A stretch of 26,221 nucleotides of DNA from a virus (taxonomy: Duplodnaviria > Caudoviricetes): positions 1 to 26,221 of the IMG/VR virus record IMGVR_UViG_3300017781_003142; one strand, 5' to 3'. Below the pieces are notes generated by a model. It worked only from the letters and a program-made list of their open reading frames with translations, had not been told where the DNA came from and did no database searches. Of this stretch, positions 2,434-25,020 are shown in pieces (position 1 is the first letter of the stretch; each line of letters opens with the position of its first letter). Both the position numbers and the translations under genes were made by a program.

Positions 2434-2460
2434 AAAAGACTAGCAAACCTATGCTAATCC
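2434..2460 (-). terminator. second terminator-like hairpin downstream of tmRNA
   Basis: GGATTAGCA-TAGGTT-TGCTAGTCT followed by TTT. Confidence 0.55.
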
Positions 2461-2471
2461 GGTTCTTCAAT

Positions 2472-2506
2472 AAGAAAGGATGTTGTATTTCTACAACACC
2501 CTTCCC
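2472..2506 (-). terminator. hairpin at the 3' end of the tmRNA transcript
   Basis: AAGGGTGTTGTA-GAAA-TACAACATCCTT followed by TCTT. Confidence 0.7.
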
Positions 2507-2758
2507 AATCGTTCTGTTGCTAGGTGATCAACCCCGGTGACCTAAATTAGGCCGCCATTGCCATTTCTGGCGCATAATTGTCGTTTGCAATTATAAAGTT
2601 TGACCAATAACGCAGTCATCCGGTAAACTCCACTTCACTACAACACCAGTCGATCCTAGTTCGACCCCATCATAAGCACACTCAGTAAATGTGTTTATGG
2701 TGGAGTCGTCGGGTACTGCCCCCGAGTCCTGTATGCGTTCACGTTGCTTCAACGTCTA
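2507..2758 (-). ncRNA. ssrA: permuted two-piece tmRNA, alphaproteobacterial type
   Basis: Acceptor piece ends CGACTCC-A-CCA (2698) with GGCAGTA T-loop; 29-nt intervening segment (2697-2669); coding piece starts GGGGTCG (2668); 7-bp acceptor stem with G3-U70; tag ORF 2588-2547 ANDNYAPEMAMAA*. Outer ends approximate. Confidence 0.93.
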
Positions 2759-2763
2759 CACAT

Positions 2764-2794
2764 TATTTATACAGTCAAAAGGCATTCTTGTCAA
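2764..2794 (-). promoter_or_regulatory. composite tmRNA promoter: sigma70 -35/-10 overlapping a T4-type late box
   Basis: TTGACA (2794-2789), 17 bp, TATAAATA (2771-2764). Confidence 0.8.
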
Positions 2795-2822
2795 CCTTTT
2801 TTTATACTAAATACCTCCAATT

Positions 2823-3185: not shown

Positions 3186-3447
3186 AAACTGGCGTTGTTA
3201 CTTCTGAATATTTTATAGCAAACATTGTGCCTGCCTTGTGATCGTCTACATCTACATAGATATCACAACGACAATATATGTCTCCTGGTAAACTTTGACT
3301 ATTGCTTCTAATGTACTCTAATTGAAATCCGTCTTGATTGCATTGCTTCCACAAGTCTTGTCCTAGTTCACGCATTATCCACATGTTTTCCATGCTCTTA
3401 TGTGCGTGGGACCATTTGTATTCACACTGCCCAATTAAATATCTCAT
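3172..3447 (-). CDS. hypothetical protein
   Basis: TATAAATA (3459-3452) 4 nt upstream of the ATG. Confidence 0.65.
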   Translation of the reverse strand: MRYLIGQCEYKWSHAHKSMENMWIMRELGQDLWKQCNQDGFQLEYIRSNSQSLPGDIYCRCDIYVDVDDHKAGTMFAIKYSEVTTPVSKVQ

Positions 3448-11305: not shown

Positions 11306-11334
11306 ATTATACTAGAAGTATTGTCTATTGTCAA
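11306..11334 (-). promoter_or_regulatory. consensus sigma70 promoter for the nfuA-like and nuclease genes
   Basis: TTGACA (11334-11329), 17 bp, TATAAT (11311-11306). Confidence 0.85.
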
Positions 11335-11645
11335 CCTAAATCTGTGGCTCTTTTTGCCATTGAGGAAACAGTTTGATCAGCACTTGGCTCTTTAGCGTCT
11401 TGTGGAATGTCGTCCATTTCACTGCTTTTAAAAGTAAGTTTCTCTTTATCAAAGTTTTTTATCATTGCTTTGACTGTTGGATCACCATTGTATGCTTGAA
11501 GAAATACATCATAACTGAATTGAGATTTTCCAACGTTTTGCATTAGTTGGTCTAATTGATCAAATTTAAATGTTTTTTGGTCTTTGTTACTGAGGACGGT
11601 TAAGACCTTTTTCAACACTTCCGTGTCGACGTTCTCAGTTACGAC
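11331..11645 (-). CDS. 104-codon reading frame, probably the -1 frameshift extension of the upstream gene
   Basis: Open from the slippery site (VVTENVDTEVLKKVL...); the GTG at 11618 has no RBS and lies inside a hairpin. Confidence 0.65.
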   Translation of the reverse strand, partial: VVTENVDTEVLKKVLTVLSNKDQKTFKFDQLDQLMQNVGKSQFSYDVFLQAYNGDPTVKAMIKNFDKEKLTFKSSEMDDIPQDAKEPSADQTVSSMAKRATDLG

Positions 11646-11651
11646 TTTTTT
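11589..11651 (-). promoter_or_regulatory. predicted programmed -1 ribosomal frameshift signal
   Basis: In-phase A_AAA_AAG (11651-11645), 5-nt spacer, stem ACTGAGAACG/CGTCCTCAGT enclosing TCGACAC-GGAA-GTGTTGA. Confidence 0.75.
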
Positions 11652-12559
11652 CCTGCTAGTAACGTTCCAATCTTGCGTGAGCGTTCTATGCTTTCGCGTG
11701 TTTCGCGTCCTGCTTCTGCTTCGCCACCTGCGGCCGCCGCATCTGCACCAAAGTCATCTGCCGCTTCGCCTGTTTCTGGATCTACTGCTGGTTCTTCTGC
11801 ATCTGCATCAACTGTTGGCTCCATTGCTGGATCTTCTCCTGCTGGATCTTCAGCACCCATTGTATCCACGGCTTCACCTTCGCCTGTTACAATGCCTACA
11901 CCTTGTGTTAGTGCTTCACGTGTTGATTCCATTGCAGTATACATTGCTTCTAATGATGGCTTAACTGCATTAGTAAATGCTTCTGATTTTTCTGCACCTA
12001 GTTCGTCTCTGATAGCATCTGCAAGTTCTAACATTGACTCTGTTTGCATTTCTGCTGTGTCTTCCATCCAACCAGTAACTCTATCTACCATGTCTTTGGA
12101 AGCCATAACTAATTCTGCGTTATCTTCTGCACCTTCTTTGATAACTGATTCTTTCATTTCTGATTTACAATCTTTGCACATCTCTTTAAGTTTTGCTTGA
12201 TCACAATCTGGATACTTTTTACAAATTTCTGCTTCACTCATTCCATCTTTACAGCATTTCATTACTTCTGCTTTGGATGGCATTTTGCCTTCTGGTGCTT
12301 CAACAATCGCTGGTGTTTCTTTAATTGCTTGATTAAGAACATCTAAAAATAATTTAGACTTTTGATAACTTTCGCTTTTCACTGAATCAAAACTTTCGTT
12401 TGTTTCAATGTCTTTTAGCATTGTACGTATTTTGTTACGTGCATCTTCTAGTTGCGGTAAAGTAAACTTGGCAATATCAATTTTAGTGCCATAGCGTTTC
12501 GCAAGACTTTCATTAAGTGTTGCGGCTGTAATTGGTGTTTTAATTTCTCTAATGTTCAT
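11639..12559 (-). CDS. acidic coiled-coil late protein (prohead core/scaffold-like)
   Basis: TAAATA at 12595-12590; Glu/Asp/Ala-rich; repeated LNES/IKEG/TRES motifs. Confidence 0.6.
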   Translation of the reverse strand: MNIREIKTPITAATLNESLAKRYGTKIDIAKFTLPQLEDARNKIRTMLKDIETNESFDSVKSESYQKSKLFLDVLNQAIKETPAIVEAPEGKMPSKAEVMKCCKDGMSEAEICKKYPDCDQAKLKEMCKDCKSEMKESVIKEGAEDNAELVMASKDMVDRVTGWMEDTAEMQTESMLELADAIRDELGAEKSEAFTNAVKPSLEAMYTAMESTREALTQGVGIVTGEGEAVDTMGAEDPAGEDPAMEPTVDADAEEPAVDPETGEAADDFGADAAAAGGEAEAGRETRESIERSRKIGTLLAGKKS

Positions 12560-12600
12560 TGTTCATATCCTTGCAGAATTTGTTATAGTTATTTATCATT

Positions 12601-13017
12601 CTAATTGTATATATAGTCTTCTAGTTGGGTTCTGCCCCTGTCGATCTTAGTTGTAGCAATATCTAGCCTACATTCTAGCACTTCTTTGCGTAATTCATCG
12701 TCTGCTTGCTTGTAACTGTGCTGGAAAAATACTGCATCATTGTAGTTTTTTTCAATTTCATAATCAATTCTAAGCACTTCGTTGACTACATTTTGCCCTT
12801 CGGCATGCTTTTTAGCAATAGCAACTGCGGCAGTTTTACTAAAAGTGTGTGCTACTTGCTTCTTGCATTTCATATCGAATACAAAGTTACCATTTTTGCT
12901 TGTACGCACTACCATATTACCTATGCGAACGCTATTACCCCTTACATACGGAAAGGGTACATCTTCAAGACCTTGTTCAATCAAGGCTTTTAGTTCACTT
13001 ATTAAGGCTTTCGTCAT
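12601..13017 (-). CDS. hypothetical protein
   Basis: Likely start MTKAL at 13017, overlapping the upstream gene. Confidence 0.7.
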   Translation of the reverse strand: MTKALISELKALIEQGLEDVPFPYVRGNSVRIGNMVVRTSKNGNFVFDMKCKKQVAHTFSKTAAVAIAKKHAEGQNVVNEVLRIDYEIEKNYNDAVFFQHSYKQADDELRKEVLECRLDIATTKIDRGRTQLEDYIYN

Positions 13018-13210
13018 TTGCAACCACCATGGTATTCCCATTATTATGTACTTTACTTACTAAACTCTTACGTATTAACCCTTCAAGAACGAATTGTTCT
13101 CTTTCGTCAAAACTTTCTAACGGCATAACGCCCTTTACACTACGAAGTAATTTTGCTTCTTCGTTAGTCATTGCTATGGTAAACTGTGTTATTAAATCGT
13201 TTAGTTTCAT
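12995..13210 (-). CDS. small hypothetical protein
   Basis: ATGA overlap with upstream gene; MKLNDLI N-terminus. Confidence 0.7.
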   Translation of the reverse strand: MKLNDLITQFTIAMTNEEAKLLRSVKGVMPLESFDEREQFVLEGLIRKSLVSKVHNNGNTMVVANDESLNK

Positions 13211-14292
13211 TTCATACTCTGTAGTTGCTTTTTCAACATATCTAATTCGGCTTTTTTAGCCTTAATTTGTTTTTGAGCAACGTCTTTTTGCATTTTTTGC
13301 ATCTTACGTTGCTGTGCTTGCGCCTTTGGATCAGTAGGTTCTGCACCTGGTTGATCTGCGGCCGCTTGCGCCTGTTTTGGTCCAGGACCTGCTACTGAAG
13401 TAGGTACTGGTGCATCCATAGGTTCGCCTGTGGCTCCTTGTGGTTGATTGGGTACATCAAATGTTTGTGGATCTGACTTTTTGTAACCTGTTCCTCCAGG
13501 TCCACCTCTGCCTGATAATGCCGCAAGTCCTGCTAGTCCTAATGCTCCTAGTCCTATGCCTTTACCTATTCCTCCTCCGCCTCCAGGCTTTTTAGGAAGT
13601 ACTCCTGTGCCTGTTCTTGACTTCAACCCTGGTACTTGCTTTGGCTTTGGTTGTACTTGTGGTTTAGGTGCTTGTTGTGGTTTAGGTGCTTGTCCTGGCG
13701 CAGATGGCTGTTGTGGCCTTGCAGGTGTTTGTCCTGGTTTAGGAGCCGCTGTGCTAGGTGCTGGTGGCTTAGGTGCCGCTGTGCTAGGTGCTGGTGCTCC
13801 TGGTTGTTTAGGTGCCGCCACTGATGGAGGTGCTAATCGTCCAGGTGGTTGCGTTCTAATTTTTGGTGCTGTGCCTGGCTTAGGCACTTGCAAAGTTGGT
13901 GGCTGTTGTGTCTTAGGTGCTGATGTTCCGCTTGGTACTGCTGGTGCTCCTCCTGCAGGGCCTTTAGGCATTGCTGGTTGTTTAGGTGCTGTGGTTGTAA
14001 CATTTGGTGGAGTTTGTTTTACTCCTGTTCTAGGATTGTTACGTCCGCCACTACTAGGACCGTCAGGATCACGCTTGAATAAATCTTTACCTTTTTTAAT
14101 CAAATCTTTTACAACAGGAGTACCACGCTTGACTAGTTCCTTCGCACCTTTTTTAACAATTGGTGCCGCTGTTTTAGCCGCTCCTCTTGCTAGTGCTCCT
14201 ATTGCCGGTGCTACTACTGCTAATGGATTCTCATTAATGATTAGGTCGAGTCTTTCGCCTTTGTCATTTTTATTAAATTCGTCAAACCTCAC
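13207..14292 (-). CDS. Pro/Ala/Gln/Lys-rich disordered protein with C-terminal coiled coil (putative internal virion protein)
   Basis: GTG start overlapping the upstream TAG; MRFDEF...IINE N-terminus; APK repeats; Gly/Ala/Leu hydrophobic stretch. Confidence 0.75.
   Translation of the reverse strand: MRFDEFNKNDKGERLDLIINENPLAVVAPAIGALARGAAKTAAPIVKKGAKELVKRGTPVVKDLIKKGKDLFKRDPDGPSSGGRNNPRTGVKQTPPNVTTTAPKQPAMPKGPAGGAPAVPSGTSAPKTQQPPTLQVPKPGTAPKIRTQPPGRLAPPSVAAPKQPGAPAPSTAAPKPPAPSTAAPKPGQTPARPQQPSAPGQAPKPQQAPKPQVQPKPKQVPGLKSRTGTGVLPKKPGGGGGIGKGIGLGALGLAGLAALSGRGGPGGTGYKKSDPQTFDVPNQPQGATGEPMDAPVPTSVAGPGPKQAQAAADQPGAEPTDPKAQAQQRKMQKMQKDVAQKQIKAKKAELDMLKKQLQSMK
13657..13692. repeat. 18-bp tandem repeat x2 (encodes QAPKPQ)
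   Basis: ttgtggtttaggtgcttg at 13657 and 13675. Confidence 0.85.
13745..13796. repeat. direct repeat with 30-bp period (encodes PAPSTAAPKP-type units)
   Basis: gccgctgtgctaggtgctggtg at 13745 and 13775. Confidence 0.85.
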
Positions 14293-14714
14293 TAGCCCAT
14301 CCTCCTTTTGCCTGCAAAACGTTTCTTAGGTCTTACGTTAATACGTTTCAAACGTTTACTTGCTGGATTTGCTCTTTTAGTTTTCTTTGTGTTAATTTTA
14401 ATTTTGTTTGGAGTTTTGCGTTTTGTTTTCTTAAGTGTAATCTTTGCTTTTTGATTTAATGGTTTATTACATGTTGCCGCTCTCGCAACAATACGTCCTT
14501 TACGCACTCCGCTTGTACAACGATACTTACGAACTTGTTTACCACCTGAACGACTCCAAATAGTTCTTACTGCTTCATTTTGAACTAGTTCACCGTCTGG
14601 CATTACTTCCCAGCCATCTGGTATAGGTTTACACATTTGATCATCATTGCAAAAATATTCACCATCTTTACAACTATTTTTATCTTCAAGTGTGAAAACT
14701 TCTCTAAGTAACAT
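14292..14714 (-). CDS. Arg/Lys-rich basic protein, paralog of 14714-15013
   Basis: IWSRSGGKQVRKYRCTSGVRKGRIV...CNKPLN; extra N-terminal Cys-rich insert. Confidence 0.8.
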   Translation of the reverse strand: MLLREVFTLEDKNSCKDGEYFCNDDQMCKPIPDGWEVMPDGELVQNEAVRTIWSRSGGKQVRKYRCTSGVRKGRIVARAATCNKPLNQKAKITLKKTKRKTPNKIKINTKKTKRANPASKRLKRINVRPKKRFAGKRRMG

Positions 14715-15013
14715 TAGCGTCTCGCTTTGTTCATTGCCTTAATTCTTCTACTTACTGGATTAATACGCTTTGTTCTTCTAGACTTTCTTGCTATACGCTT
14801 ACCAAGCCTTGCTTGTGTACGTTTTAAAGTATAACGTGCCTTCATGTTAATAGGTTTGAAACATGCACTAGGAGCACTTACTATTCTTCCATGTCGAGTG
14901 CCACCGGAGCATCTATACTTGCGTACGGCTTTATTACCCCTGCGTCCCCATATTTGTTTCTCTATAATTATTTCATCAGATACGGGATCAGTAATGATTT
15001 CTCTTAAGTTCAT
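14714..15013 (-). CDS. Arg/Lys-rich basic protein
   Basis: IWGRRGNKAVRKYRCSGGTRHGRIV...CFKPIN; TAAATA 4 nt upstream of the ATG. Confidence 0.8.
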   Translation of the reverse strand: MNLREIITDPVSDEIIIEKQIWGRRGNKAVRKYRCSGGTRHGRIVSAPSACFKPINMKARYTLKRTQARLGKRIARKSRRTKRINPVSRRIKAMNKARR

Positions 15014-16226: not shown

Positions 16227-17174
16227 CTATTTACGGCTCTTTTTTGCTCTCTGATGCAGTGCTCTTAGGAGATTTATGTATGCAGGACCTGCTTTTACTA
16301 TATCATCTAGCATTTTAACCGCCGGAACGTAGCCTTGTACGAACTGACCTGGTACACTTTTACCTTGTTTTGCTAGATTTAAGAAGTTTTTAGTACGCAT
16401 TACATTTTCTGTGCCTACTATATAACGATATAAACTTATATCACGTGCATCTGTAGTAATATCTGGTACACTTACTGTAGGTTCGTTATCTGCTACTCTT
16501 GCTGTTTCTAAGTCGTTGGTTGCAGATAGTTTTCCAAGATCGTCTACTAAATCACTCGTACGTAGTTTTGCTCTTGCGGCAATTAGTAATCTTGTAATAG
16601 TATTTTGTTTGTCTTTGGTGCTTAGGCTTTTGTATCTTGTAAGATTTCTACGTACAATTTTATAGTCAGCATTAGTAATATTCAACGCACCTTCAAGTTT
16701 GATAAGGAATTGTGAAGTTTGGGTGTATTGATGATTACTTGCAATACTTTTCAGCCAACCATTAAGTTGCATCAAAGGAAGAAACGTTCTTTGTCTCATT
16801 GCTTTTGCGGCACTAGGATCTTTTAGTTTGTTCATAGCCTCGTCATTACCATTTACAAAATAAGCAAAGTTATACAAATCTGTACCACTCATTCTATATG
16901 CTTTGAACGTGTCATATCCTGTAGTTCTTCTAGCATACTCTCCTGCGGTTCGTCTAAAATAAGCATATTGATTAAGTGCTTCTAATACCAATACACTTAG
17001 ATACAAACGTTCACAACAATCTGTATACGTTAAACTTTTGACTGTGCCGGCTTGGCGAGTCATACGTGCTTCGTGCATGTCTTTTATAAAAGAAAACTGT
17101 GCTTGTTTAGGAGTGTCCAAACTATGGCCTCCTTCCATGGTTGCCCATTCAGTTGCTGTATACTTTTCAGCCAT
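16227..17174 (-). CDS. hypothetical late-operon protein
   Basis: 315-aa helical-looking ORF packed in the late operon. Confidence 0.75.
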   Translation of the reverse strand: MAEKYTATEWATMEGGHSLDTPKQAQFSFIKDMHEARMTRQAGTVKSLTYTDCCERLYLSVLVLEALNQYAYFRRTAGEYARRTTGYDTFKAYRMSGTDLYNFAYFVNGNDEAMNKLKDPSAAKAMRQRTFLPLMQLNGWLKSIASNHQYTQTSQFLIKLEGALNITNADYKIVRRNLTRYKSLSTKDKQNTITRLLIAARAKLRTSDLVDDLGKLSATNDLETARVADNEPTVSVPDITTDARDISLYRYIVGTENVMRTKNFLNLAKQGKSVPGQFVQGYVPAVKMLDDIVKAGPAYINLLRALHQRAKKSRK

Positions 17175-17179
17175 TAATA

Positions 17180-17665
17180 CTATTCTTCTTTGCCGTTTAC
17201 TGCACTATACAGATCTTCTGCAAATTCTGCTACTTTGTCAACAGCATAATTTACTTTTAATTTGTCTGCTAGGTCTATTGCTTTGAACACTGCGTCTGCT
17301 AGATCTTTATCAGATAAGTTAACACTTTCTTGAACTGATTCTTCTTCTGGATCTTCTGGCTCTGGGTCTTTTACCCCTGCGCCTGGTTTTACATCTGCGC
17401 CTTTGACTTTAGCAATAATTGCTTTTGCCATTTCAATATCTACGTTAGCATCTTTCAATGCTTCGCCTGGTGTCTTAGGTCCAAATGATGATCCTAGTTT
17501 TCCAAATGACGAGCCTAATGCCGCCGCTTTGTTAAACTCTACATCTTCCCATTCGATACCACTTCCTGGCTCTAATGCTGAAGCAATCTTTTGCCCCATT
17601 CTTACATACGGCATAAGTTTTGGATCTACATCGTATGGTCCTTCTTGTAAGTCTGTAATTTTCAT
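17180..17665 (-). CDS. acidic hypothetical protein (putative internal head protein)
   Basis: MKITDLQEG N-terminus; internal EESVQES; AAGGA RBS. Confidence 0.75.
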   Translation of the reverse strand: MKITDLQEGPYDVDPKLMPYVRMGQKIASALEPGSGIEWEDVEFNKAAALGSSFGKLGSSFGPKTPGEALKDANVDIEMAKAIIAKVKGADVKPGAGVKDPEPEDPEEESVQESVNLSDKDLADAVFKAIDLADKLKVNYAVDKVAEFAEDLYSAVNGKEE

Positions 17666-17675
17666 TTTGTTTTCC

Positions 17676-18914
17676 TTATCTTTCTACTGCTCTATTTGCG
17701 GCAGAGAATGTTTTACGTGGTACTAACTTAATGTCGCCTCCAGGATGTGCTAACACATATCCTTCACCACCCGGCTTGTCACCTATTGACTGTTTGACAT
17801 CTCCGCCCTGACTGTCAAACTTAGCAATAATATCGTCTTTTGCTTTTTGTATTGCACTTACAACTTTCCACATTGCTTTGAAATGTCCCATGTGCTCTTT
17901 TATATATGCAAGAACATTTGCTTTCTTCTTTTCACTAATCTTTGCTGATTGTAGCCAATTAGCAAAGTCTCCACCTAAGTTATCTAATCCTGTGTCAACT
18001 TTACTGTTGATGTATGCATAAAATATTTTAGGTAAATCTGTCATTTGCTTCGCTCTTAGGCTAGGCTCATCAAGCATTGCATCTAGTCCTTGTGCGTTTT
18101 GTTTTACAACGGCTTCTGTTTGGTCTAATATAGATGTATCAACTTCAACTGGTGCTACAGTTGTAACACTTGGAACTACAAATACATCATTGCCTTGGAA
18201 TATATCTTTGTTTTTAAATGGACCTTCACTACCTTCAGCATCAACTTCTCTATGTATTACAATACCTGTTGTGCTTTTACCAATGCGTTTACCTAAGTCA
18301 CTCTTAACGTCAATATTATATGTAACTGTTTGTGGCTTAAATGTATAATGTCCGTCTTTTACTTCAGGTGTTGTATAATATAACAAGTCACCTTTGAAGT
18401 ATCCTCTATAATCTTTTGGCACTGCTTTTTCATACAAACTAAAAATTGTTGCCATCTTATCTGCGAATGCTATACGGCCCGGATCATCTCTGAGTTTGCC
18501 ACCTGAACGACCGAGCAACTCTTGCTTAATCGCATCTGGACTTTTGGTTCTTCCGACTCCGCCTTTTTTGCCGAAACCTGATTTGTCTGTAAATATAAAC
18601 TCTCCATTTTCATCGCGGCCAAAAATGAGCGCGGGAGATCCGTCCCATTTGAGTGTAACATTTTTATGCTCTCCTCCTGCCATGTCGCGTAATGATTTAA
18701 GGACACGCATTGCGCCTTTACTACCTTCCCAAAATATTACATCTTCAGCATGATCAATACGAGCACCTTCTCTAAGAGTTTCGCCTACAAGTTTTCCTCT
18801 TGCTGGATGTGGAGTTTCATTACCGCCAGGTTTACTTTTCTTCTTAATGGCGTCTTTGCCTTTAAGTTGTCCTGCCTTACCTTTTTTATATTCTTTAAAT
18901 TCTACGTAACGCAT
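17676..18914 (-). CDS. RNA-ligase-like covalent nucleotidyltransferase (DUF6267-like)
   Basis: Motif I TLKWDGS, motif III FKGDLLY, motif IV GEGYV, motif V IKLV in canonical order; no evident OB domain. Confidence 0.7.
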   Translation of the reverse strand: MRYVEFKEYKKGKAGQLKGKDAIKKKSKPGGNETPHPARGKLVGETLREGARIDHAEDVIFWEGSKGAMRVLKSLRDMAGGEHKNVTLKWDGSPALIFGRDENGEFIFTDKSGFGKKGGVGRTKSPDAIKQELLGRSGGKLRDDPGRIAFADKMATIFSLYEKAVPKDYRGYFKGDLLYYTTPEVKDGHYTFKPQTVTYNIDVKSDLGKRIGKSTTGIVIHREVDAEGSEGPFKNKDIFQGNDVFVVPSVTTVAPVEVDTSILDQTEAVVKQNAQGLDAMLDEPSLRAKQMTDLPKIFYAYINSKVDTGLDNLGGDFANWLQSAKISEKKKANVLAYIKEHMGHFKAMWKVVSAIQKAKDDIIAKFDSQGGDVKQSIGDKPGGEGYVLAHPGGDIKLVPRKTFSAANRAVER

Positions 18915-20079
18915 TCACTATCTCGTTTTCTTGTGTTTGAATTTTCTTTTTATTCCAAGCACTGTTTGGATCTGCTTCTTGGCGATCTACAATTTCTTTT
19001 GCACTTGGCATTTTTGCTAGAATACTTTCTACTGATCCTAAGTCACCTGCTGTTGCATTAGGACCTATCAACTGTTTTGCAATATTTTCTAAGTCATTAC
19101 TTACAAGTTCGTTTGTATCTCTGTTGACTAAACCTTTATAGGGGCTCCATTTGAATCCTTTTTCTTTTGCAAGGTCAGCAAGCATAATTTGTTTATGAAT
19201 ACCTTTGTACGGAGAACCTTTAGGCAAATCGTGTACATGAAACTTACTTGCAGTTTCTCCATTGTCAACTACCATAATGTCAACTTGCTGTGGAGTGTCT
19301 CCTACTGTAGTTTTTACGTGTACAATTTGTCCTGTCTTTTTAGTTTCAAATCCTGCTTGTTGAAACATTTTTTCTAATTCTACTTTAGCAGTCTTTACGT
19401 CAGGTGCTTTGAATCTCTTTATAAGTTGTCCTGCATCTGCAATCATATCTAAGTCGCCACTCATCTTACCTGGTGTAGGAGTTGCGCCTGATCCAATTGG
19501 TAATGCTTTAACACCTGCTTTGGTCATTACACCATTAATCTGTTTCATCATATCAGGAATAATCTTTTGATCAAAGTCTGCTGTTCCTTGGAAAATATTA
19601 CCACCTTCTGTAATAATACTTTCTTTTACATAGTAACGTTGCCCACTAGGTAATTGATTATATCTCAATGCACCTTCCTTACCAGTAAGTGGTTGTGATC
19701 CATCATTTGGTATCCATAAGTCTTTATCTGGAGCATACTGATAACCAATTTCATTATTGTCTTTGAAGCCTGCTATCTGTGGAATTTGACTTGGATTAAT
19801 TTTATCGTTTCTACTTTGCACTGGCTTTTTAGCATCTGGCTTTTTCTTAACTACTTTTTTCTTTACTGTTTTTGTTTTCTTTTTTATTTGATCAATTGAA
19901 GGCTTTTCATCAGGTCCTGGTTTACCAGTTGTTCCCTGCATTGTTTGTATTGCTTTCATAGGAAAACTAGTACGAACCCAATCGTCTGCTTTTTTAACCC
20001 AACTATCGTCATCTTTACTAACGGTTTTCATAGATTTGGATTTTTTAGGTCCTTCGTTTAGTAGATCATTTATCTTCAT
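18895..20079 (-). CDS. Pol-beta superfamily nucleotidyltransferase domain behind a Lys-rich N-terminal region
   Basis: IGSG...SGDLDM (hGS..DxD) and third Asp in QQVDIM. Confidence 0.7.
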   Translation of the reverse strand: MKINDLLNEGPKKSKSMKTVSKDDDSWVKKADDWVRTSFPMKAIQTMQGTTGKPGPDEKPSIDQIKKKTKTVKKKVVKKKPDAKKPVQSRNDKINPSQIPQIAGFKDNNEIGYQYAPDKDLWIPNDGSQPLTGKEGALRYNQLPSGQRYYVKESIITEGGNIFQGTADFDQKIIPDMMKQINGVMTKAGVKALPIGSGATPTPGKMSGDLDMIADAGQLIKRFKAPDVKTAKVELEKMFQQAGFETKKTGQIVHVKTTVGDTPQQVDIMVVDNGETASKFHVHDLPKGSPYKGIHKQIMLADLAKEKGFKWSPYKGLVNRDTNELVSNDLENIAKQLIGPNATAGDLGSVESILAKMPSAKEIVDRQEADPNSAWNKKKIQTQENEIVNALRRI

Positions 20080-20329
20080 TTTTTGCTTCCATTACTTTTG
20101 ACATTACTCTTTTAAATTTACGTGGATCTCCAGTTCTAATAGAATTTAAGAACCTACGTTCTAATTCGTTTGCGGTAGCATCATCATAATTTTCAGCAAT
20201 TCTATTCAAAAGATTAATCGCACTTTCAATAATATTATTGCCAGTGGCTTCAATTAGATGGTCGTTATTCTTCTTTGAACGTCCAACTGTATTCAATTCT
20301 TGCAATATGCTTCTAGTACGTTTTTTCAT
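20066..20329 (-). CDS. hypothetical protein, first gene of the late operon
   Basis: GGAG RBS; TAAATA at 20352-20347. Confidence 0.75.
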   Translation of the reverse strand: MKKRTRSILQELNTVGRSKKNNDHLIEATGNNIIESAINLLNRIAENYDDATANELERRFLNSIRTGDPRKFKRVMSKVMEAKNEDK

Positions 20330-20346
20330 TAGTTACTCCGATACAG

Positions 20347-20367
20347 TATTTAGCGTTAGAATAAATA
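20347..20367. promoter_or_regulatory. back-to-back divergent TAAATA late-type promoters
   Basis: TAAATA on minus (20352-20347) and on plus (20362-20367), 9 bp apart, each followed by an RBS and an ORF. Confidence 0.7.
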
Positions 20368-20393
20368 TAGATGTAAACTTAGGAGATGGGCAT

Positions 20394-21152
20394 ATGTCAA
20401 TTAACGAATTGAATTTCAAAGAACGATCCCTATTATTTGCTAAACTTTCAAGTATTGCTTATAGTAACATAAAAGAAGCAAAAGGTCAAGTAAAGAAATT
20501 AGGGTTTACAACTGTGGAATTCTACAATAAAGATGGGGCGCAAGCATATCGTTTTATGAATAAGACTGATATAGTAATTGCATGTCGTGGAACACAACCG
20601 ACAGAATTTAATGATTTAAAAGCAGATTTGAAGGCAACACCAGTAATGGCTGAAACTGTAAGTAGGGTACACAGAGGATTTAAGCAAGAAGTAGATGATC
20701 TTTGGCCTGATGTGCAAGAAGATTTATTACGAAAAGTAAATGTTAAAAAGACATTATGGTTTTGTGGACACAGTCTAGGTGCGGCAATGGCTACTATTAT
20801 GGCAAGTCGTTGTATGCATGAGGATAGATTAAATGATCCTGTTGAACTATACACCTTTGGTTCTCCAAGAGTAGGCTGGAGAGGCTATTGTAAAAGTTTG
20901 GCTGTAACACATCATCGTTGGAAAAATAACAATGATATAGTTACTACTGTTCCTCTTTGGATTATGGGATATGTGCATCACGGCACACAACATTATCTAA
21001 ATGCATACGGTAAGTATAGAAAACCTACAGGCTGGCAGATGTTTAAGGATAGATGGCGCGGCATGTGGATGGGCATTAAAAAAGGCAAAATAGATAACTT
21101 TGGTGATCACTCTATGGCAGAGTATATCAAACACATATCTAACCTTGACTAA
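20394..21152 (+). CDS. class 3 lipase (alpha/beta hydrolase)
   Basis: IACRGT, VHRGF, GHSLG nucleophile, TFGSPRVG, NNNDIV Asp, DHSM His; start MSINE at 20394 with AGGAG RBS. Confidence 0.92.
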   Translation: MSINELNFKERSLLFAKLSSIAYSNIKEAKGQVKKLGFTTVEFYNKDGAQAYRFMNKTDIVIACRGTQPTEFNDLKADLKATPVMAETVSRVHRGFKQEVDDLWPDVQEDLLRKVNVKKTLWFCGHSLGAAMATIMASRCMHEDRLNDPVELYTFGSPRVGWRGYCKSLAVTHHRWKNNNDIVTTVPLWIMGYVHHGTQHYLNAYGKYRKPTGWQMFKDRWRGMWMGIKKGKIDNFGDHSMAEYIKHISNLD

Positions 21153-22332
21153 TTAATTCTTCCAAAGTTTCTAAAACATTACTGCTATCGTCAGCGGCCC
21201 CTAAGTCGATAGCAGTCTTAACACAATTACGAGTAAACTCTAAATCAAAGCGTTTTCCATTTGTATCCATTCCTGTGTTAATCAAATATACTTTACAATC
21301 GTTAGCATGAACTTTTTGCATTAGCAAATTGCTATACTCTTTTACTTCGCGTGGCATAAACGGTGATCCGTAGCAAGGACTAAACAAAGGTTTGATTTCG
21401 TTTGTTCCTGCTTCAGTGCCTGGCATCTGACTTGTGTATCCTGTTTCAAAGAAACGCCTCACTGTGTCTCCGCTTATCCTACTCAATGGAGGAAACACAC
21501 CTTTAGCATCCATAGTAAGGAAGAATATATTTTTAGGATGTTCAAACAATACAGACTTATGATATGCATTTTCTACACAATCTATTGGATAACTTAAACG
21601 TGCATTAGATGCATTAGGATTTTCTATTACAAGTGTGTTGCGTTCTTTTGCAAGTTCGACAGCATCAAAGATTGTTTTATGTGTTTCAGGCGATAGTCCT
21701 TCTGACTTTGCATAGCAACCTGTTTCAATCATTTGAATGCCTTCTTGTTCCCATATCACTTCGTCATCACTAATAAGTTGATAGTCAGGATCACTACTAA
21801 GTGTAGTTTTACCTGTGCCAGATAACCCAAACATTAAATTAGTTGTATCTTGATAAGTGAACGCTGAACAATGCATAGGTAAAATACCGTTAGCAGGTGT
21901 TTCAAAACTTACAATACCAAACACACCTTTTTTAATCTCACCCAAAAACGTTGTGCCTGCAATCAACATTACTTGTTCATCAAGGTGTACATAAATTTTA
22001 GGCTCAGGTATTTCTAAGTCAGTGTTGTGAAGTATTGTCCAATCTGCTGTGTGTTCTAATCCGTTCTCTTCTACAGTAAACATGTTACGGACAAACTGTG
22101 CATGCCTATCATCATTTGTTTCTACTCTAAAACAAAACCCGCATGTATAAAAAACTAGATTATGATTGTATTCTAGTTCGTACATTATATTATGAAAGTC
22201 TTTGAAGTCTTCTTCAACTCCTATCTTGTTATACTTAGGTCTAGACATATCTAAATGTTTTGTTCTATTGCCAAAGAAGAATTTGTTTTCGGGGCTTCGG
22301 CCAGTAGGCGAGGTAGTGATGTTGATGTTCAT
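21139..22332 (-). CDS. pckA: phosphoenolpyruvate carboxykinase (ATP), shortened
   Basis: TGRSP, GEIKKG, MHCSA, GLSGTGKTTLS, SDDE, GCYAK, NARLSYP, YLINTG. Confidence 0.93.
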   Translation of the reverse strand: MNINITTSPTGRSPENKFFFGNRTKHLDMSRPKYNKIGVEEDFKDFHNIMYELEYNHNLVFYTCGFCFRVETNDDRHAQFVRNMFTVEENGLEHTADWTILHNTDLEIPEPKIYVHLDEQVMLIAGTTFLGEIKKGVFGIVSFETPANGILPMHCSAFTYQDTTNLMFGLSGTGKTTLSSDPDYQLISDDEVIWEQEGIQMIETGCYAKSEGLSPETHKTIFDAVELAKERNTLVIENPNASNARLSYPIDCVENAYHKSVLFEHPKNIFFLTMDAKGVFPPLSRISGDTVRRFFETGYTSQMPGTEAGTNEIKPLFSPCYGSPFMPREVKEYSNLLMQKVHANDCKVYLINTGMDTNGKRFDLEFTRNCVKTAIDLGAADDSSNVLETLEELISQG

Positions 22333-22333
22333 T

Positions 22334-23296
22334 TTACAAGGTTCCTATGTAAGCGGCTGTGTCAGCCATGCGACAACTAAATGCCCATTCGTTATCATAC
22401 CAGCCTAATACTCGACCCATATGATTATCTATAACTTTAGTTTGGTCTGCGGCTATGATACAACTTTCCGCAGTGTGATTGTAATCAATACTAACTAATG
22501 GTTGTGTTTCATATCCCAACACACCATTTAAAAAGAGACCAGCATAACTTTCAAATGCTAAATTAACTTCGTCTACATCAATAGGAGTTTCACTTTCAAA
22601 TGTAAAGTCAACACAACTAACATTTGCAGTAGGAACTCTAATAGCACTTCCAGTTAGTTTACCTTGTAGTTCAGGAATAATTAATCCTATGTTCTTAGTT
22701 GCGCCTGTGCTTGTAGGTATCATACTCATACCTGCTGTTCTTGCTCTATAGGGATCTTTATGTCGTCTATCAACTGTGCTTTGATCTCCTGTGTAACTAT
22801 GAACAGTTGTCATTACTCCTCTTTTAATTCCAAACTCTTTCTGTAACACCATTGCCATAGGAGCAAGGCAATTTGTTGTACAACTAGCATTACTAACAAC
22901 AAAGTCTGTTGATTCTAATTCGTGATGATTAACACCGTAAACTGTTGTGAAGTCTACATTCTTTGCAGGCGCACTAATTAATACTCTAGTTGCACCATTA
23001 TCTATATGTTTACTTGCAACCTTTCCATCATTAAACGCCCCAGTACATTCTAAAACTACATCTACATCATTCCATTTAAGTTGTGTGATGTCACGTTCAT
23101 GAGTCCATTCAATGTCGTTGCTAACATGACCGGGGTTACGTCCATGTATACTATCAAACTTTAATAAATGCAAATTACTTTCTTTGTCGCCACTTGCATT
23201 TATTTTTACTAGTTCTAAGTCGTTACGTTCATTTATAATGTGCCGGGCAACACATCGACCTATACGACCAAATCCGTTTATACCAACCCGTACCAT
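22334..23296 (-). CDS. gap: type I glyceraldehyde-3-phosphate dehydrogenase
   Basis: GINGFGRIGR, SNASCTTNCLAP, TTVHSYT, IPTSTGA, RVPT, WYDNEW. Confidence 0.96.
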   Translation of the reverse strand: MVRVGINGFGRIGRCVARHIINERNDLELVKINASGDKESNLHLLKFDSIHGRNPGHVSNDIEWTHERDITQLKWNDVDVVLECTGAFNDGKVASKHIDNGATRVLISAPAKNVDFTTVYGVNHHELESTDFVVSNASCTTNCLAPMAMVLQKEFGIKRGVMTTVHSYTGDQSTVDRRHKDPYRARTAGMSMIPTSTGATKNIGLIIPELQGKLTGSAIRVPTANVSCVDFTFESETPIDVDEVNLAFESYAGLFLNGVLGYETQPLVSIDYNHTAESCIIAADQTKVIDNHMGRVLGWYDNEWAFSCRMADTAAYIGTL

Positions 23297-24256
23297 TTAG
23301 ACAAACAGGCTACTAACGGATTCTTCGTTAGTAACTCTACGCATTGCTTCTCCAAATAGTGGTGCAACACTTACTTGTCTTGTTTTCTTACAGTTCTTTG
23401 GACATCGATCGGCAATTGAATCAGTAACTACTAATTCATCTAATACACTTTTCTCAACCTTCTGACAGGCATCGTCGGACAGTACACCGTGTGTGATATA
23501 TGCTCTAACACTTAAAGCACCTTGATCCATGATTGCTTTGGCCGCATTGCATAGTGTTCCGCCTGAGTCTACAATGTCATCAACAAGGATAGCATGTTTG
23601 CCTTTGACATCTCCAATTAGATTCATTACTTCTGACTTGCCTGCTTCAGGACGCATCTTGTCTACAATAGCAATGTCTCCATTAAACATATCAGCAAACT
23701 TTCTAGCACGAACAACTCCGCCTGCGTCCGGTGAAACAAAAACAGTCTTTGCTTGTTCTACATCTGGTTCGTCGATAATACCAATTGAACGTTTTATATC
23801 TTTTGCAAATACTACACGGCTTGTTAAATCATCCACTGGGATATCAAAGAAGCCTTGTATCTGTCCTGCATGTAGATCCATTGTAAGGATCCTATCTGCA
23901 CCTGCTGTAACTAACAAGTTGGCAACTAGTTTTGCTGTAATAGGAGTACGACTTGCACTCTTACGATCTTGTCTTGCATAACCAAAGTAAGGAATGACTG
24001 CTGTAATTCTACTTGCACTTGATCTACGTGCCGCATCAATCATAATCAACAGTTCCATAAGACTATCATTAACAGGCGTACATGTACTTTGTACTATAAA
24101 CACATCTTCACCGCGAATGTTTTCGTTAAACTCTACACTAGATTCTCCATCTGCAAACGTGCTGACGTTTGCTGGAACAAGACTAGCAAAACAGTGTTCT
24201 GCTATCTCTTGTGCTAATTTAGGATTAGCATTTCCTGTAATGATTTTCATCTTCAA
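23297..24256 (-). CDS. prs: ribose-phosphate pyrophosphokinase (class I PRPP synthetase)
   Basis: FADGE, PYFGYARQDRK, DLHAGQIQGFF, VSPDAGG, VDDIVDSGGT. Confidence 0.97.
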   Translation of the reverse strand: MKMKIITGNANPKLAQEIAEHCFASLVPANVSTFADGESSVEFNENIRGEDVFIVQSTCTPVNDSLMELLIMIDAARRSSASRITAVIPYFGYARQDRKSASRTPITAKLVANLLVTAGADRILTMDLHAGQIQGFFDIPVDDLTSRVVFAKDIKRSIGIIDEPDVEQAKTVFVSPDAGGVVRARKFADMFNGDIAIVDKMRPEAGKSEVMNLIGDVKGKHAILVDDIVDSGGTLCNAAKAIMDQGALSVRAYITHGVLSDDACQKVEKSVLDELVVTDSIADRCPKNCKKTRQVSVAPLFGEAMRRVTNEESVSSLFV

Positions 24257-25020
24257 GTTGGGTCCTTTCTAACCTGTTGGTTGTAATTGTCTGCTTCTTC
24301 AAGTATAGTTATACGTCCTCCTGCGACCTGAGCAGACCTTATGGTTGCAGTAACGTCTTTAGGAAAACAATGTCCTCCATAGCCACGTGCATTACGTGAT
24401 ACTAAACTATGGCTAGCATTGATTCGCTTGTCGTCTGTAATAACTTTTCTAACTGTTTCAAAGTCTATTTCTTGTGCATCACAAAAGTCTTTTACTTGAT
24501 TAAAGTAAGTAACCTTTAGTGCTAAGAAACTATTTCTTAATTGCTTGGCGGCAATAAGTTCTTTAGGATCTGCTGGAGTAACGCTAATTGAACCTAGTGC
24601 ATCTATAAACAATTCTGCCCAAAAATTTGTATCTCCTCCGCCTACATACATATGATCATTTAATCTAAAATCAGTTTTCCAATGTGCCGCACGTAGGAAC
24701 TCTGGAGAGTAACTAACATTTTTATTCTTACAACAATCTGTTACTAACTTCCAGCCTTCTATACTCATTGTACTTTTAATTAAGTAAGGAACATTAGGAC
24801 CATCATCAAGGACATCACCTACATTGGTTACATCACAATGACCATTACTACTTCCTGGTGTGCTGACACAAATAATAATTGCATCTGCATGACGTAAGTC
24901 TCCGTAGTGGCCTTGTGCAGGGTCGCTAATAATAATATCGTGGTAAGGTTCAAGCATTAATTCGTGTGCTTTACCTACGTATCCGTATCCTGCTATTCCT
25001 ATTTTCATCCTATCATCCAA
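24253..25020 (-). CDS. UDP-glucose/GDP-mannose dehydrogenase family protein lacking the C-terminal domain
   Basis: GYGYVG, CVSTP, IKST, SPEFLR, KQLRNSFLA, GYGGHCFPKD; only 255 aa. Confidence 0.88.
   Translation of the reverse strand: MDDRMKIGIAGYGYVGKAHELMLEPYHDIIISDPAQGHYGDLRHADAIIICVSTPGSSNGHCDVTNVGDVLDDGPNVPYLIKSTMSIEGWKLVTDCCKNKNVSYSPEFLRAAHWKTDFRLNDHMYVGGGDTNFWAELFIDALGSISVTPADPKELIAAKQLRNSFLALKVTYFNQVKDFCDAQEIDFETVRKVITDDKRINASHSLVSRNARGYGGHCFPKDVTATIRSAQVAGGRITILEEADNYNQQVRKDPT

Follow-up and report, generated by a model that had tools for sequence, protein, structure and literature searches.

A conserved -1 recoding site probably extends a virion-type protein with a predicted winged-helix domain in an uncultured jumbo-phage family

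The frameshift heptamer of IS911 and the IS3 family is A-rich and is followed by a 3' stem with an inner hairpin, and the shift joins an upstream open reading frame (ORF) to one in the -1 frame; the phage locus analysed here resembles it in the A-rich heptamer, in a predicted 3' stem with an inner hairpin and in the proposed joining of two frames. The product of the insertion sequences is a transposase, which that of our locus is not, and the three-way junction given for IS911 in the accessible text has a counterpart here only in the centroid fold, in which a third helix appears that the consensus fold does not contain. The dnaX gene of E. coli shares the in-phase A_AAA_AAG and has a 3' stem-loop at typical spacing, as is predicted for our locus; the accessible part of PMC5009743 describes this heptamer as the most shift-prone in E. 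coli and gives 5-9 nt as the usual spacer. Unlike our locus, however, dnaX has a 5' Shine-Dalgarno (SD) stimulator, and its shift truncates the protein (PMC7412058, accessible part), whereas the shift proposed here would extend it. Such SD-like stimulators, 9-14 nt upstream, are optional and present in dnaX and about half of the IS elements.

Extension of a virion protein by frameshifting is also known. A fraction of the protein gains a C-terminal domain in this way in T3/T7 gene 10, in Lactobacillus phage A2 and in the Listeria phages A118, A500 and PSA (PMC5009743, accessible part), as we propose here. Those cases concern major capsid or tail proteins, which mostly gain Ig-like domains, whereas the protein of our locus cannot be assigned to a named family, and what it would gain is a predicted winged helix, preceded by a candidate protease site. 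Otherwise, annotated phage frameshifts are overwhelmingly those of tail chaperones (PMC10885494, accessible part). Retroviral Gag-Pol offers an analogy in the way of working: a frameshift fusion to an abundant structural protein packages a minor protein, which is released by proteolysis (PMC5009743, accessible part). The proteins are unrelated to ours, and packaging and cleavage at our locus are put forward conditionally below. The closest described genes by descent are pairs in cultured phages, namely RaK2 ORF135/136, 121Q gp27/gp28, phAPEC6 gp183c/182c, CBB_298/299 and PA5oct gp237/238, which are distant homologues, in the same order, of the two frames that we call A and B. Like A and B, these pairs sit upstream of an exonuclease and nrdA/nrdB, and several of their products are virion proteins by mass spectrometry. 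In contrast to our locus, they are separate genes with their own starts and a leader M-K/R-x-x-D/Q-I/L-x-E, and none showed a -1 overlap.

Here, we analysed a stretch of 26,221 nucleotides, referred to as the window, from a large, uncultured marine tailed phage; nearly all genes of this stretch lie on the minus strand. The features of the locus are the following.

12590..12596, minus strand: ATAAATA motif in the intergenic space ahead of ORF A, possibly a late promoter (weak)
11639..12559, minus strand: ORF A, 306 aa, probable virion protein (phrog_14154 match, E 1.2e-11, and profile matches)
11645..11651, minus strand: slippery heptamer A_AAA_AAG, a run of six A, in phase, two codons ahead of the A stop
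11640..11644, minus strand: spacer of 5 nt between heptamer and stem, overlapping the TAA of ORF A
11630..11639, minus strand: 5' arm of the outer stem (minimum free energy, MFE, fold)
11612..11629, minus strand: inner hairpin of 7 bp, capped by a GNRA-type tetraloop that is GGAA in the window and GCAA in certain relatives
11589..11598, minus strand: 3' arm of the outer stem (MFE fold)
11616..11618, minus strand: GTG called as the ORF B start by gene callers, probably no real start (paired, no SD)
11331..11651, minus strand: ORF B in the -1 frame, a 104-residue extension after two Lys, with no usable start of its own
11634..11642, minus strand: V-T-E in the -1 frame, candidate prohead-protease site, resembling ITE and LTE of T4 Alt
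11424..11624, minus strand: predicted winged-helix-like domain of B, about residues 10-76 (model mean pLDDT 68)
11343..11369, minus strand: C-terminal V-x-x-M-A-x-x-A-T motif of B in a flexible tail (M98, A99 and A102 invariant in 45 sequences)

The 3' end of ORF A reads GGA AAA AAG TCG TAA. From the heptamer, the -1 frame runs for 106 residues to a TGA at 11333-11331, 104 of them beyond the two Lys, and the predicted long form has 409 aa. The sequence-only reading from which this analysis started had placed an in-phase A_AAA_AAG at this position, with 104 open codons behind it and products of 306 and 409 aa; on recomputation from the sequence, position, phase and lengths were all exact. In-phase A_AAA_AAR is rare in the window, with 3 occurrences at 7311 codon positions across 33 genes, and only at the A/B junction does it open a long -1 frame (106 codons versus 4 and 12). 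The two other in-phase A_AAA_AAG sites, at 16245 and 19885 on the minus strand, are probably incidental because their -1 frames close so soon.

Is this junction conserved among the relatives of A? A first set contained the window and 80 loci retrieved with A, 81 rows in all. In 78 of them, B is in the -1 frame and overlaps A at its end; in 2 it is a separate gene, and 1 gave no match to B. When junctions less than 85% identical to one another were counted as distinct, 45 clusters resulted, and a usable in-phase A_AAA_AAR was present in 44 of them versus 3 of 322 other ORF ends, one of these three being a duplicated copy of the same site. At Lys-Lys pairs inside A, the in-phase motif was found in 17 of 194 cases. 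One locus (L051) has the 3' end of A twice, at 3232 and 4448, either by duplication or as an assembly artefact.

A second set of 240 loci gave 79 junction clusters, whose proportions are not an unbiased census because sampling was deliberately extended around a separate-gene locus: 62 have an in-phase A_AAA_AAR and no leader ATG, 16 have a separate ATG gene and no slippery site, and 1 has both. A slippery site with -1 overlap instead of a separate ATG, as expected for frameshifting, holds in the 62, and the opposite layout, which the sequence-only reading had named as speaking against itself, is found in the 16. Any ATG, GTG or TTG ahead of the first conserved helix of B occurs in only 10 of the 62 recoded clusters, with an SD-like motif in 1 of those. 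The separate B genes have an SD-like motif in 11 of 16 cases, and they open with a leader M-x-x-x-D/E-I/L/V followed by acidic residues. The terminal Lys codons of A are AAG 14 times and AAA 3 times in those separate-gene lineages that have kept them, versus AAA 130 times and AAG 54 times in recoded clusters. On a midpoint-rooted tree from a quick IQ-TREE search, in which the Lys tail of A was included, at least three changes between the separate and the recoded state are needed. Three loci stand out individually. The cluster with both features (L053) has an in-phase A6G site (six A, then G) with an open -1 frame as well as an ATG and leader for B, and is possibly transitional; its sister (L213) has nine A (A9) and no ATG; and an A9 recoded junction (L205) is nested among separate-gene lineages, which suggests regain or recombination.

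In a more distant lineage, B is a separate gene in 7 of 7 loci, as in the cultured phages examined. The loci L273-L279 have A and B separated by an additional gene, rich in Gly and Ala and provided with a leader; we considered a frameshift joining B to this extra gene and rejected it, as B has its own ATG in 7 of 7. Among 150 distant A proteins, two (P0165 and P0176) are in-frame fusions of A and B, to which the B profile matches with E 8e-21 and 9e-18, respectively. All seven members of the P0176 cluster, from several contigs, read SKKKISE at the junction, the kind of junction that the -1 shift would produce. The DNA encoding the P0176 fusion was looked for and not found, and the in-frame fusions are therefore seen at the protein level only. 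A third apparent fusion (P0272) was rejected, because it is represented by one sequence only and its linker has the look of a translation in the wrong frame. No longer proteins holding B were found among 7995 candidates, although the P0165 and P0176 fusions did turn up among the distant A proteins; at least 4656 A-like proteins were among the 8000 candidates scored. When A, B and the core of A were compared directly with 50,697 phage records by tblastn, nothing meaningful was matched. Based on the conservation of the junction, the lost start, the separate gene in lineages that lack the slippery site and the in-frame fusions, we regard recoding that joins A to B as strongly supported and very likely, and the programmed -1 recoding that had been read from the window alone gains the same four lines of evidence.

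Two other explanations have to be weighed against this, of which the independent start has the more to commend it. B might be a separate gene that re-initiates at the GTG/TTG at 11618-11613 or at a later ATG, with the Lys end of A a protein motif only. Separate B genes do exist, in 16 clusters, in all seven distant loci and in the cultured relatives, and the GTG of the window lies 23 nt past the A stop. As the sequence-only reading had held, this GTG lacks a ribosome-binding site and is buried in the hairpin: it is fully paired in the ensemble, and the region upstream gives +0.4 kcal/mol against the anti-SD, i.e. no pairing. It is moreover GTA in 3 of 18 close sequences, and the -1-frame residues upstream of it are conserved; in the Atlas, the ORF B entry begins at residue 12, probably mis-started by gene callers. 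Across the family, 52 of the 62 slippery clusters have no start codon ahead of the first conserved helix, and the avoidance of AAA in the Lys tail by separate-gene lineages argues against a mere protein motif. Independent initiation of B is thus very unlikely in our estimate. Scarcely credible is the other explanation, a single fused gene split by a homopolymer assembly error or by DNA-level phase variation of the A run. The in-frame fusions and the long A runs of most relatives speak for it; against it stand the same offset in 78 of 81 rows from many assemblies and a zero-frame stop that is kept while the -1 frame stays coding. Furthermore, one and the same A6G junction recurs in 16 of 16 distinct close sequences, taken from other assemblies and from the window, and it is therefore very unlikely to be an assembly error or the sequencing error in the A6 run that had been named as a danger to the frameshift reading.

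We also examined the RNA structure that follows the heptamer. The stem, the GGAA hairpin and the 5-nt spacing described beforehand are all present and make up the MFE fold (-18.7 kcal/mol); the outer stem has one mismatch, and the spacer falls within the typical 5-9 nt. Dinucleotide shuffling shows the fold to stand out only moderately (z -1.2 to -2.6 by segment). Compared with synonymous recodings of the same peptide, it reaches z -4.2, with 2 of 1000 recodings equally stable, and in all 4 clade members tested the stem is more stable than its synonymous recodings (z -2.7 to -4.5). Among 18 sequences, the stem codons have a synonymous diversity of 0.096, compared with 0.279 downstream (p 0.0015, the codons not being independent), and the two A6 clusters of the clade of the window rank 2 and 5 among 44 by 3' folding energy. 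The covarying stem that had been expected is seen only in part: a double change occurs at 1 of 17 pairs, from C-G to U-A in the hairpin, in 3 related sequences and probably as one event. The outer stem showed no covariation, and its last pair is broken in 2 sequences. An Rfam search with the frameshift element returned no family. A 5' SD stimulator was not found, upstream pairing in the window being -3.3 kcal/mol; 8 of 62 clusters reach -5 kcal/mol or below versus 139 of 992 control positions. We also considered a family-wide 3' stimulator specific to recoded lineages, which proved unsupported. Excess predicted structure about 0-85 nt from the first conserved helix of B is found in recoded and separate-gene lineages alike and is equally strong in the two (mean z -1.7 versus -1.5), with a weak difference in the folding window nearest the slip site (-1.32 versus -0.52, p 0.13). 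Since separate-gene lineages carry it too, this structure in the 5' part of B may have another job.

Would the ribosome or RNA polymerase change the frame? Polymerase slippage would add one A to the transcript, and ordinary translation would then give the fusion. The lengths of the A runs lend this route weight: among 63 slippery clusters, 48 have A9, 8 have A10, 4 have A8 and 3 have A6, so that 56 of 63 have at least the nine A or T at which efficient bacterial RNA-polymerase slippage is reported (PMC5009743, accessible part). These 56 resemble dnaX of Thermus thermophilus, for which the accessible text describes transcriptional slippage on a run of nine, and from which the A6 run of the window differs. 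In addition, TCA precedes AAA AAA AAG in 40 of 44 TCN cases versus a usage of 65% (p 1e-4, the clusters not being independent), and in three clusters a run of nine is retained out of its usual phase, as TCG or TCT followed by AAA AAA AAA; taken together, these suggest that a length of nine is kept beyond the need of one heptamer. However, TCA creates a second in-phase heptamer and so fits the ribosomal model too, which leaves this evidence not decisive. That PA5oct, a relative, uses the host RNA polymerase (PMC7318152) also counts for slippage by the polymerase. Against it stands the window with its clade, in which a run of nine is absent: only six A are present, yet B has no start, and the constraint on the 3' stem is not explained by polymerase slippage. 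The 3' structure is still untranscribed while the polymerase crosses the run and would thus act only on the ribosome. The A6G clade forms one branch (support 88), without a B start, inside the A8-A10 clade (support 99), and the A6 state is represented by this single lineage. Since six A are fewer than the reported nine and the stem is synonymously constrained, we take ribosomal -1 shifting to be the best reading for the window and consider it probable in its clade, and polymerase slippage improbable there, though it could persist at a low level at A6. In the A9-A10 relatives, polymerase slippage is likely important, and across the wider family, in which A9 dominates, it may carry part or most of the recoding.

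The genomic surroundings relate the phage to known jumbo phages. The gene order of small ORF, ORF, A, B, exonuclease and nrdA/nrdB is that of 121Q gp25-33 and RaK2 ORF133-140, the order in PA5oct agrees only as far as the exonuclease, and homologous proteins sit on contigs of up to 327 kb; by this shared order and these contigs, the phage of the window is a distant relative of RaK2/121Q-type jumbo phages. Besides ribonucleotide reductase and exonuclease, the window contains a tail-spike-like gene, several virion-type genes and metabolic genes, among them a cluster at 21139-25020 (minus strand) for PEP carboxykinase, GAPDH, PRPP synthetase and UDP-glucose dehydrogenase, next to a class 3 lipase gene at 20238-21152 on the opposite, plus strand. 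A phage-encoded permuted alphaproteobacterial tmRNA at 2456-2798 (minus strand; RF01849, 131 bits) suggests an alphaproteobacterial host. At 11334-11306 (minus strand), a perfect sigma-70 consensus promoter (12/12, 17-nt spacer) overlaps the ORF B stop and precedes a NifU-like gene, which is itself inserted between B and the exonuclease. The ATAAATA motif upstream of A is not enriched, with 7 matches in the window versus 11 expected. Many neighbouring genes (12995-15013, 17180-20079 and, with A itself, 11639-12559, minus strand) start with a similar leader M-x-x-x-D/E-I/L/V/F, which resembles the leader of the separate B genes and is possibly a shared head-targeting sequence.

Protein A is predicted to consist of an N-terminal helical domain, a variable insert, a conserved helical hairpin with a WMEDTAEMQ core, an acidic disordered linker and a basic C-terminal helix. 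The phrog_14154 family is labelled 'virion structural protein', and the A profile matches RaK2 ORF135, PA5oct gp237, CBB_298, 121Q gp27 and proteins of Atu_ph07, SCTP-2 and Vibrio phage 2.275.O, with no match in XacN1 or RsoM2USA; the cultured relatives are reached through fold and profile searches only. Neither A nor B had a match in Pfam; searches with PDB profiles yielded no significant hit, and those in the Atlas led to viral clusters without a name. In the virions of cultured phages, the RaK2 homologue of A (gp135) is represented by 7 peptides, and a search of the same supplementary table (PMC3622015) found no row for gp136. The accessible virion table of phAPEC6 (PMC7247149) lists 1 peptide for the B homologue gp182c and does not list gp183c. 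Both gp237 and gp238 of PA5oct are annotated as structural by ESI-MS/MS; CBB_298 is structural and CBB_299 is not, so that in RaK2, phAPEC6 or CBB virions the homologues of A and B are not both reported. The sequence-only reading had called A a putative head core protein. This is supported only in part: distant homologues are virion proteins, but the annotated scaffold of phAPEC6 is a different gene (gp226; PMC7247149, accessible part), and homology to T4 gp22, gp67, gp68 or internal proteins was found in none of the PHROGs, Pfam, PDB profile and viral fold searches. Since 121Q and phAPEC6 contain an inner body (PMC5646251, PMC7247149, accessible parts), an internal location of A and B is plausible.

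The model of B runs H-E-H-H-(H)-E-E, which fits the helix-strand-helix-helix-strand-strand topology of a winged helix, and its best fold matches are generic winged-helix domains at a middling Z of 6.2 (rmsd 3.2, 67 aligned). Judged by this model the domain may bind nucleic acid, but a shared fold shows no function, and many of the matches are protein-binding winged helices. Homology of B to the cultured-phage genes is weak and leans on synteny, with profile E values of about 1e-4 to 0.06 and a profile-profile comparison at probability 50% and E 1.6e-4; PA5oct gp238 gave no profile match. The candidate cleavage site recurs in its essentials: a Glu lies within -1-frame codons 2-10 in 61 of 62 clusters, with V, I or L two residues earlier in 58, which lends some support to the protease site that the sequence-only reading had suspected at KKVVTE. 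T4-type prohead proteases cut after Glu, e.g. at ITE and LTE in Alt (PMC5694885, accessible part); no prohead protease gene is among the annotated genes of the window. We had considered that the virion might retain B but not A, the latter being destroyed; this was dropped, as RaK2 virions contain the A homologue.

We propose that ribosomes translating the 306-residue virion-type protein A would likely pause at the predicted stem-loop 5 bases past A_AAA_AAG, and that a fraction of them would slip back by one base and continue into the start-less B frame, at an efficiency that would yield from one gene the 306-aa protein and a minor 409-aa form with the predicted winged-helix domain. The extension would then likely be carried on A into the assembling head, where a prohead protease would free B at V-T-E. 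The mature domain would then be essentially that which separate-gene lineages would obtain by removing a leader. The frameshift would thereby take the place of the start codon and N-terminal leader with which the B domain is equipped in sister lineages. For packaging and cleavage as the purpose of the frameshift, we see the chances as about even. Only tentatively, and with more doubt than confidence, we further propose that one abundant aquatic jumbo-phage family has four interchangeable genetic means of bringing the same winged-helix cargo into the head. B would be encoded separately with its own leader, be fused to A in frame, be joined to A by slippage of RNA polymerase on A9, or be joined by a -1 shift of the ribosome on A6G plus stem, the A6G clade having switched to purely ribosomal shifting with a strengthened stem. 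If true, a dnaX-like change of recoding mechanism would have been caught between close relatives, and a tailed phage would be using it for packaging in the manner of Gag-Pol.

In summary, the signal is of a textbook type, and virion proteins extended by frameshifting have been described before; for its occurrence in the A/B family we found no earlier report, in a literature search that covered few subscription journals and, of the supplements, that of RaK2. The word 'frameshift' is absent from the PA5oct paper, and in the accessible part of the PaBG paper dnaX is the sole frameshift mentioned. What is new in the window is a short-run, stem-bearing allele, which points to the ribosome and makes a switch of mechanism within the family testable. 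Phage recoding, so far a matter of tail chaperones and of extended capsid or tail proteins, would thereby gain a very large family of uncultured phages. Nature supplies a series of lineages (separate genes, fusions, A9 runs and A6G with a stem) that offers a test of when transcriptional and when ribosomal recoding is chosen, and that bears on the control a phage has over the copy number of a minor virion protein. We anticipate that the cultured relatives RaK2, 121Q, phAPEC6 and PA5oct will open the function of A and B to genetics.
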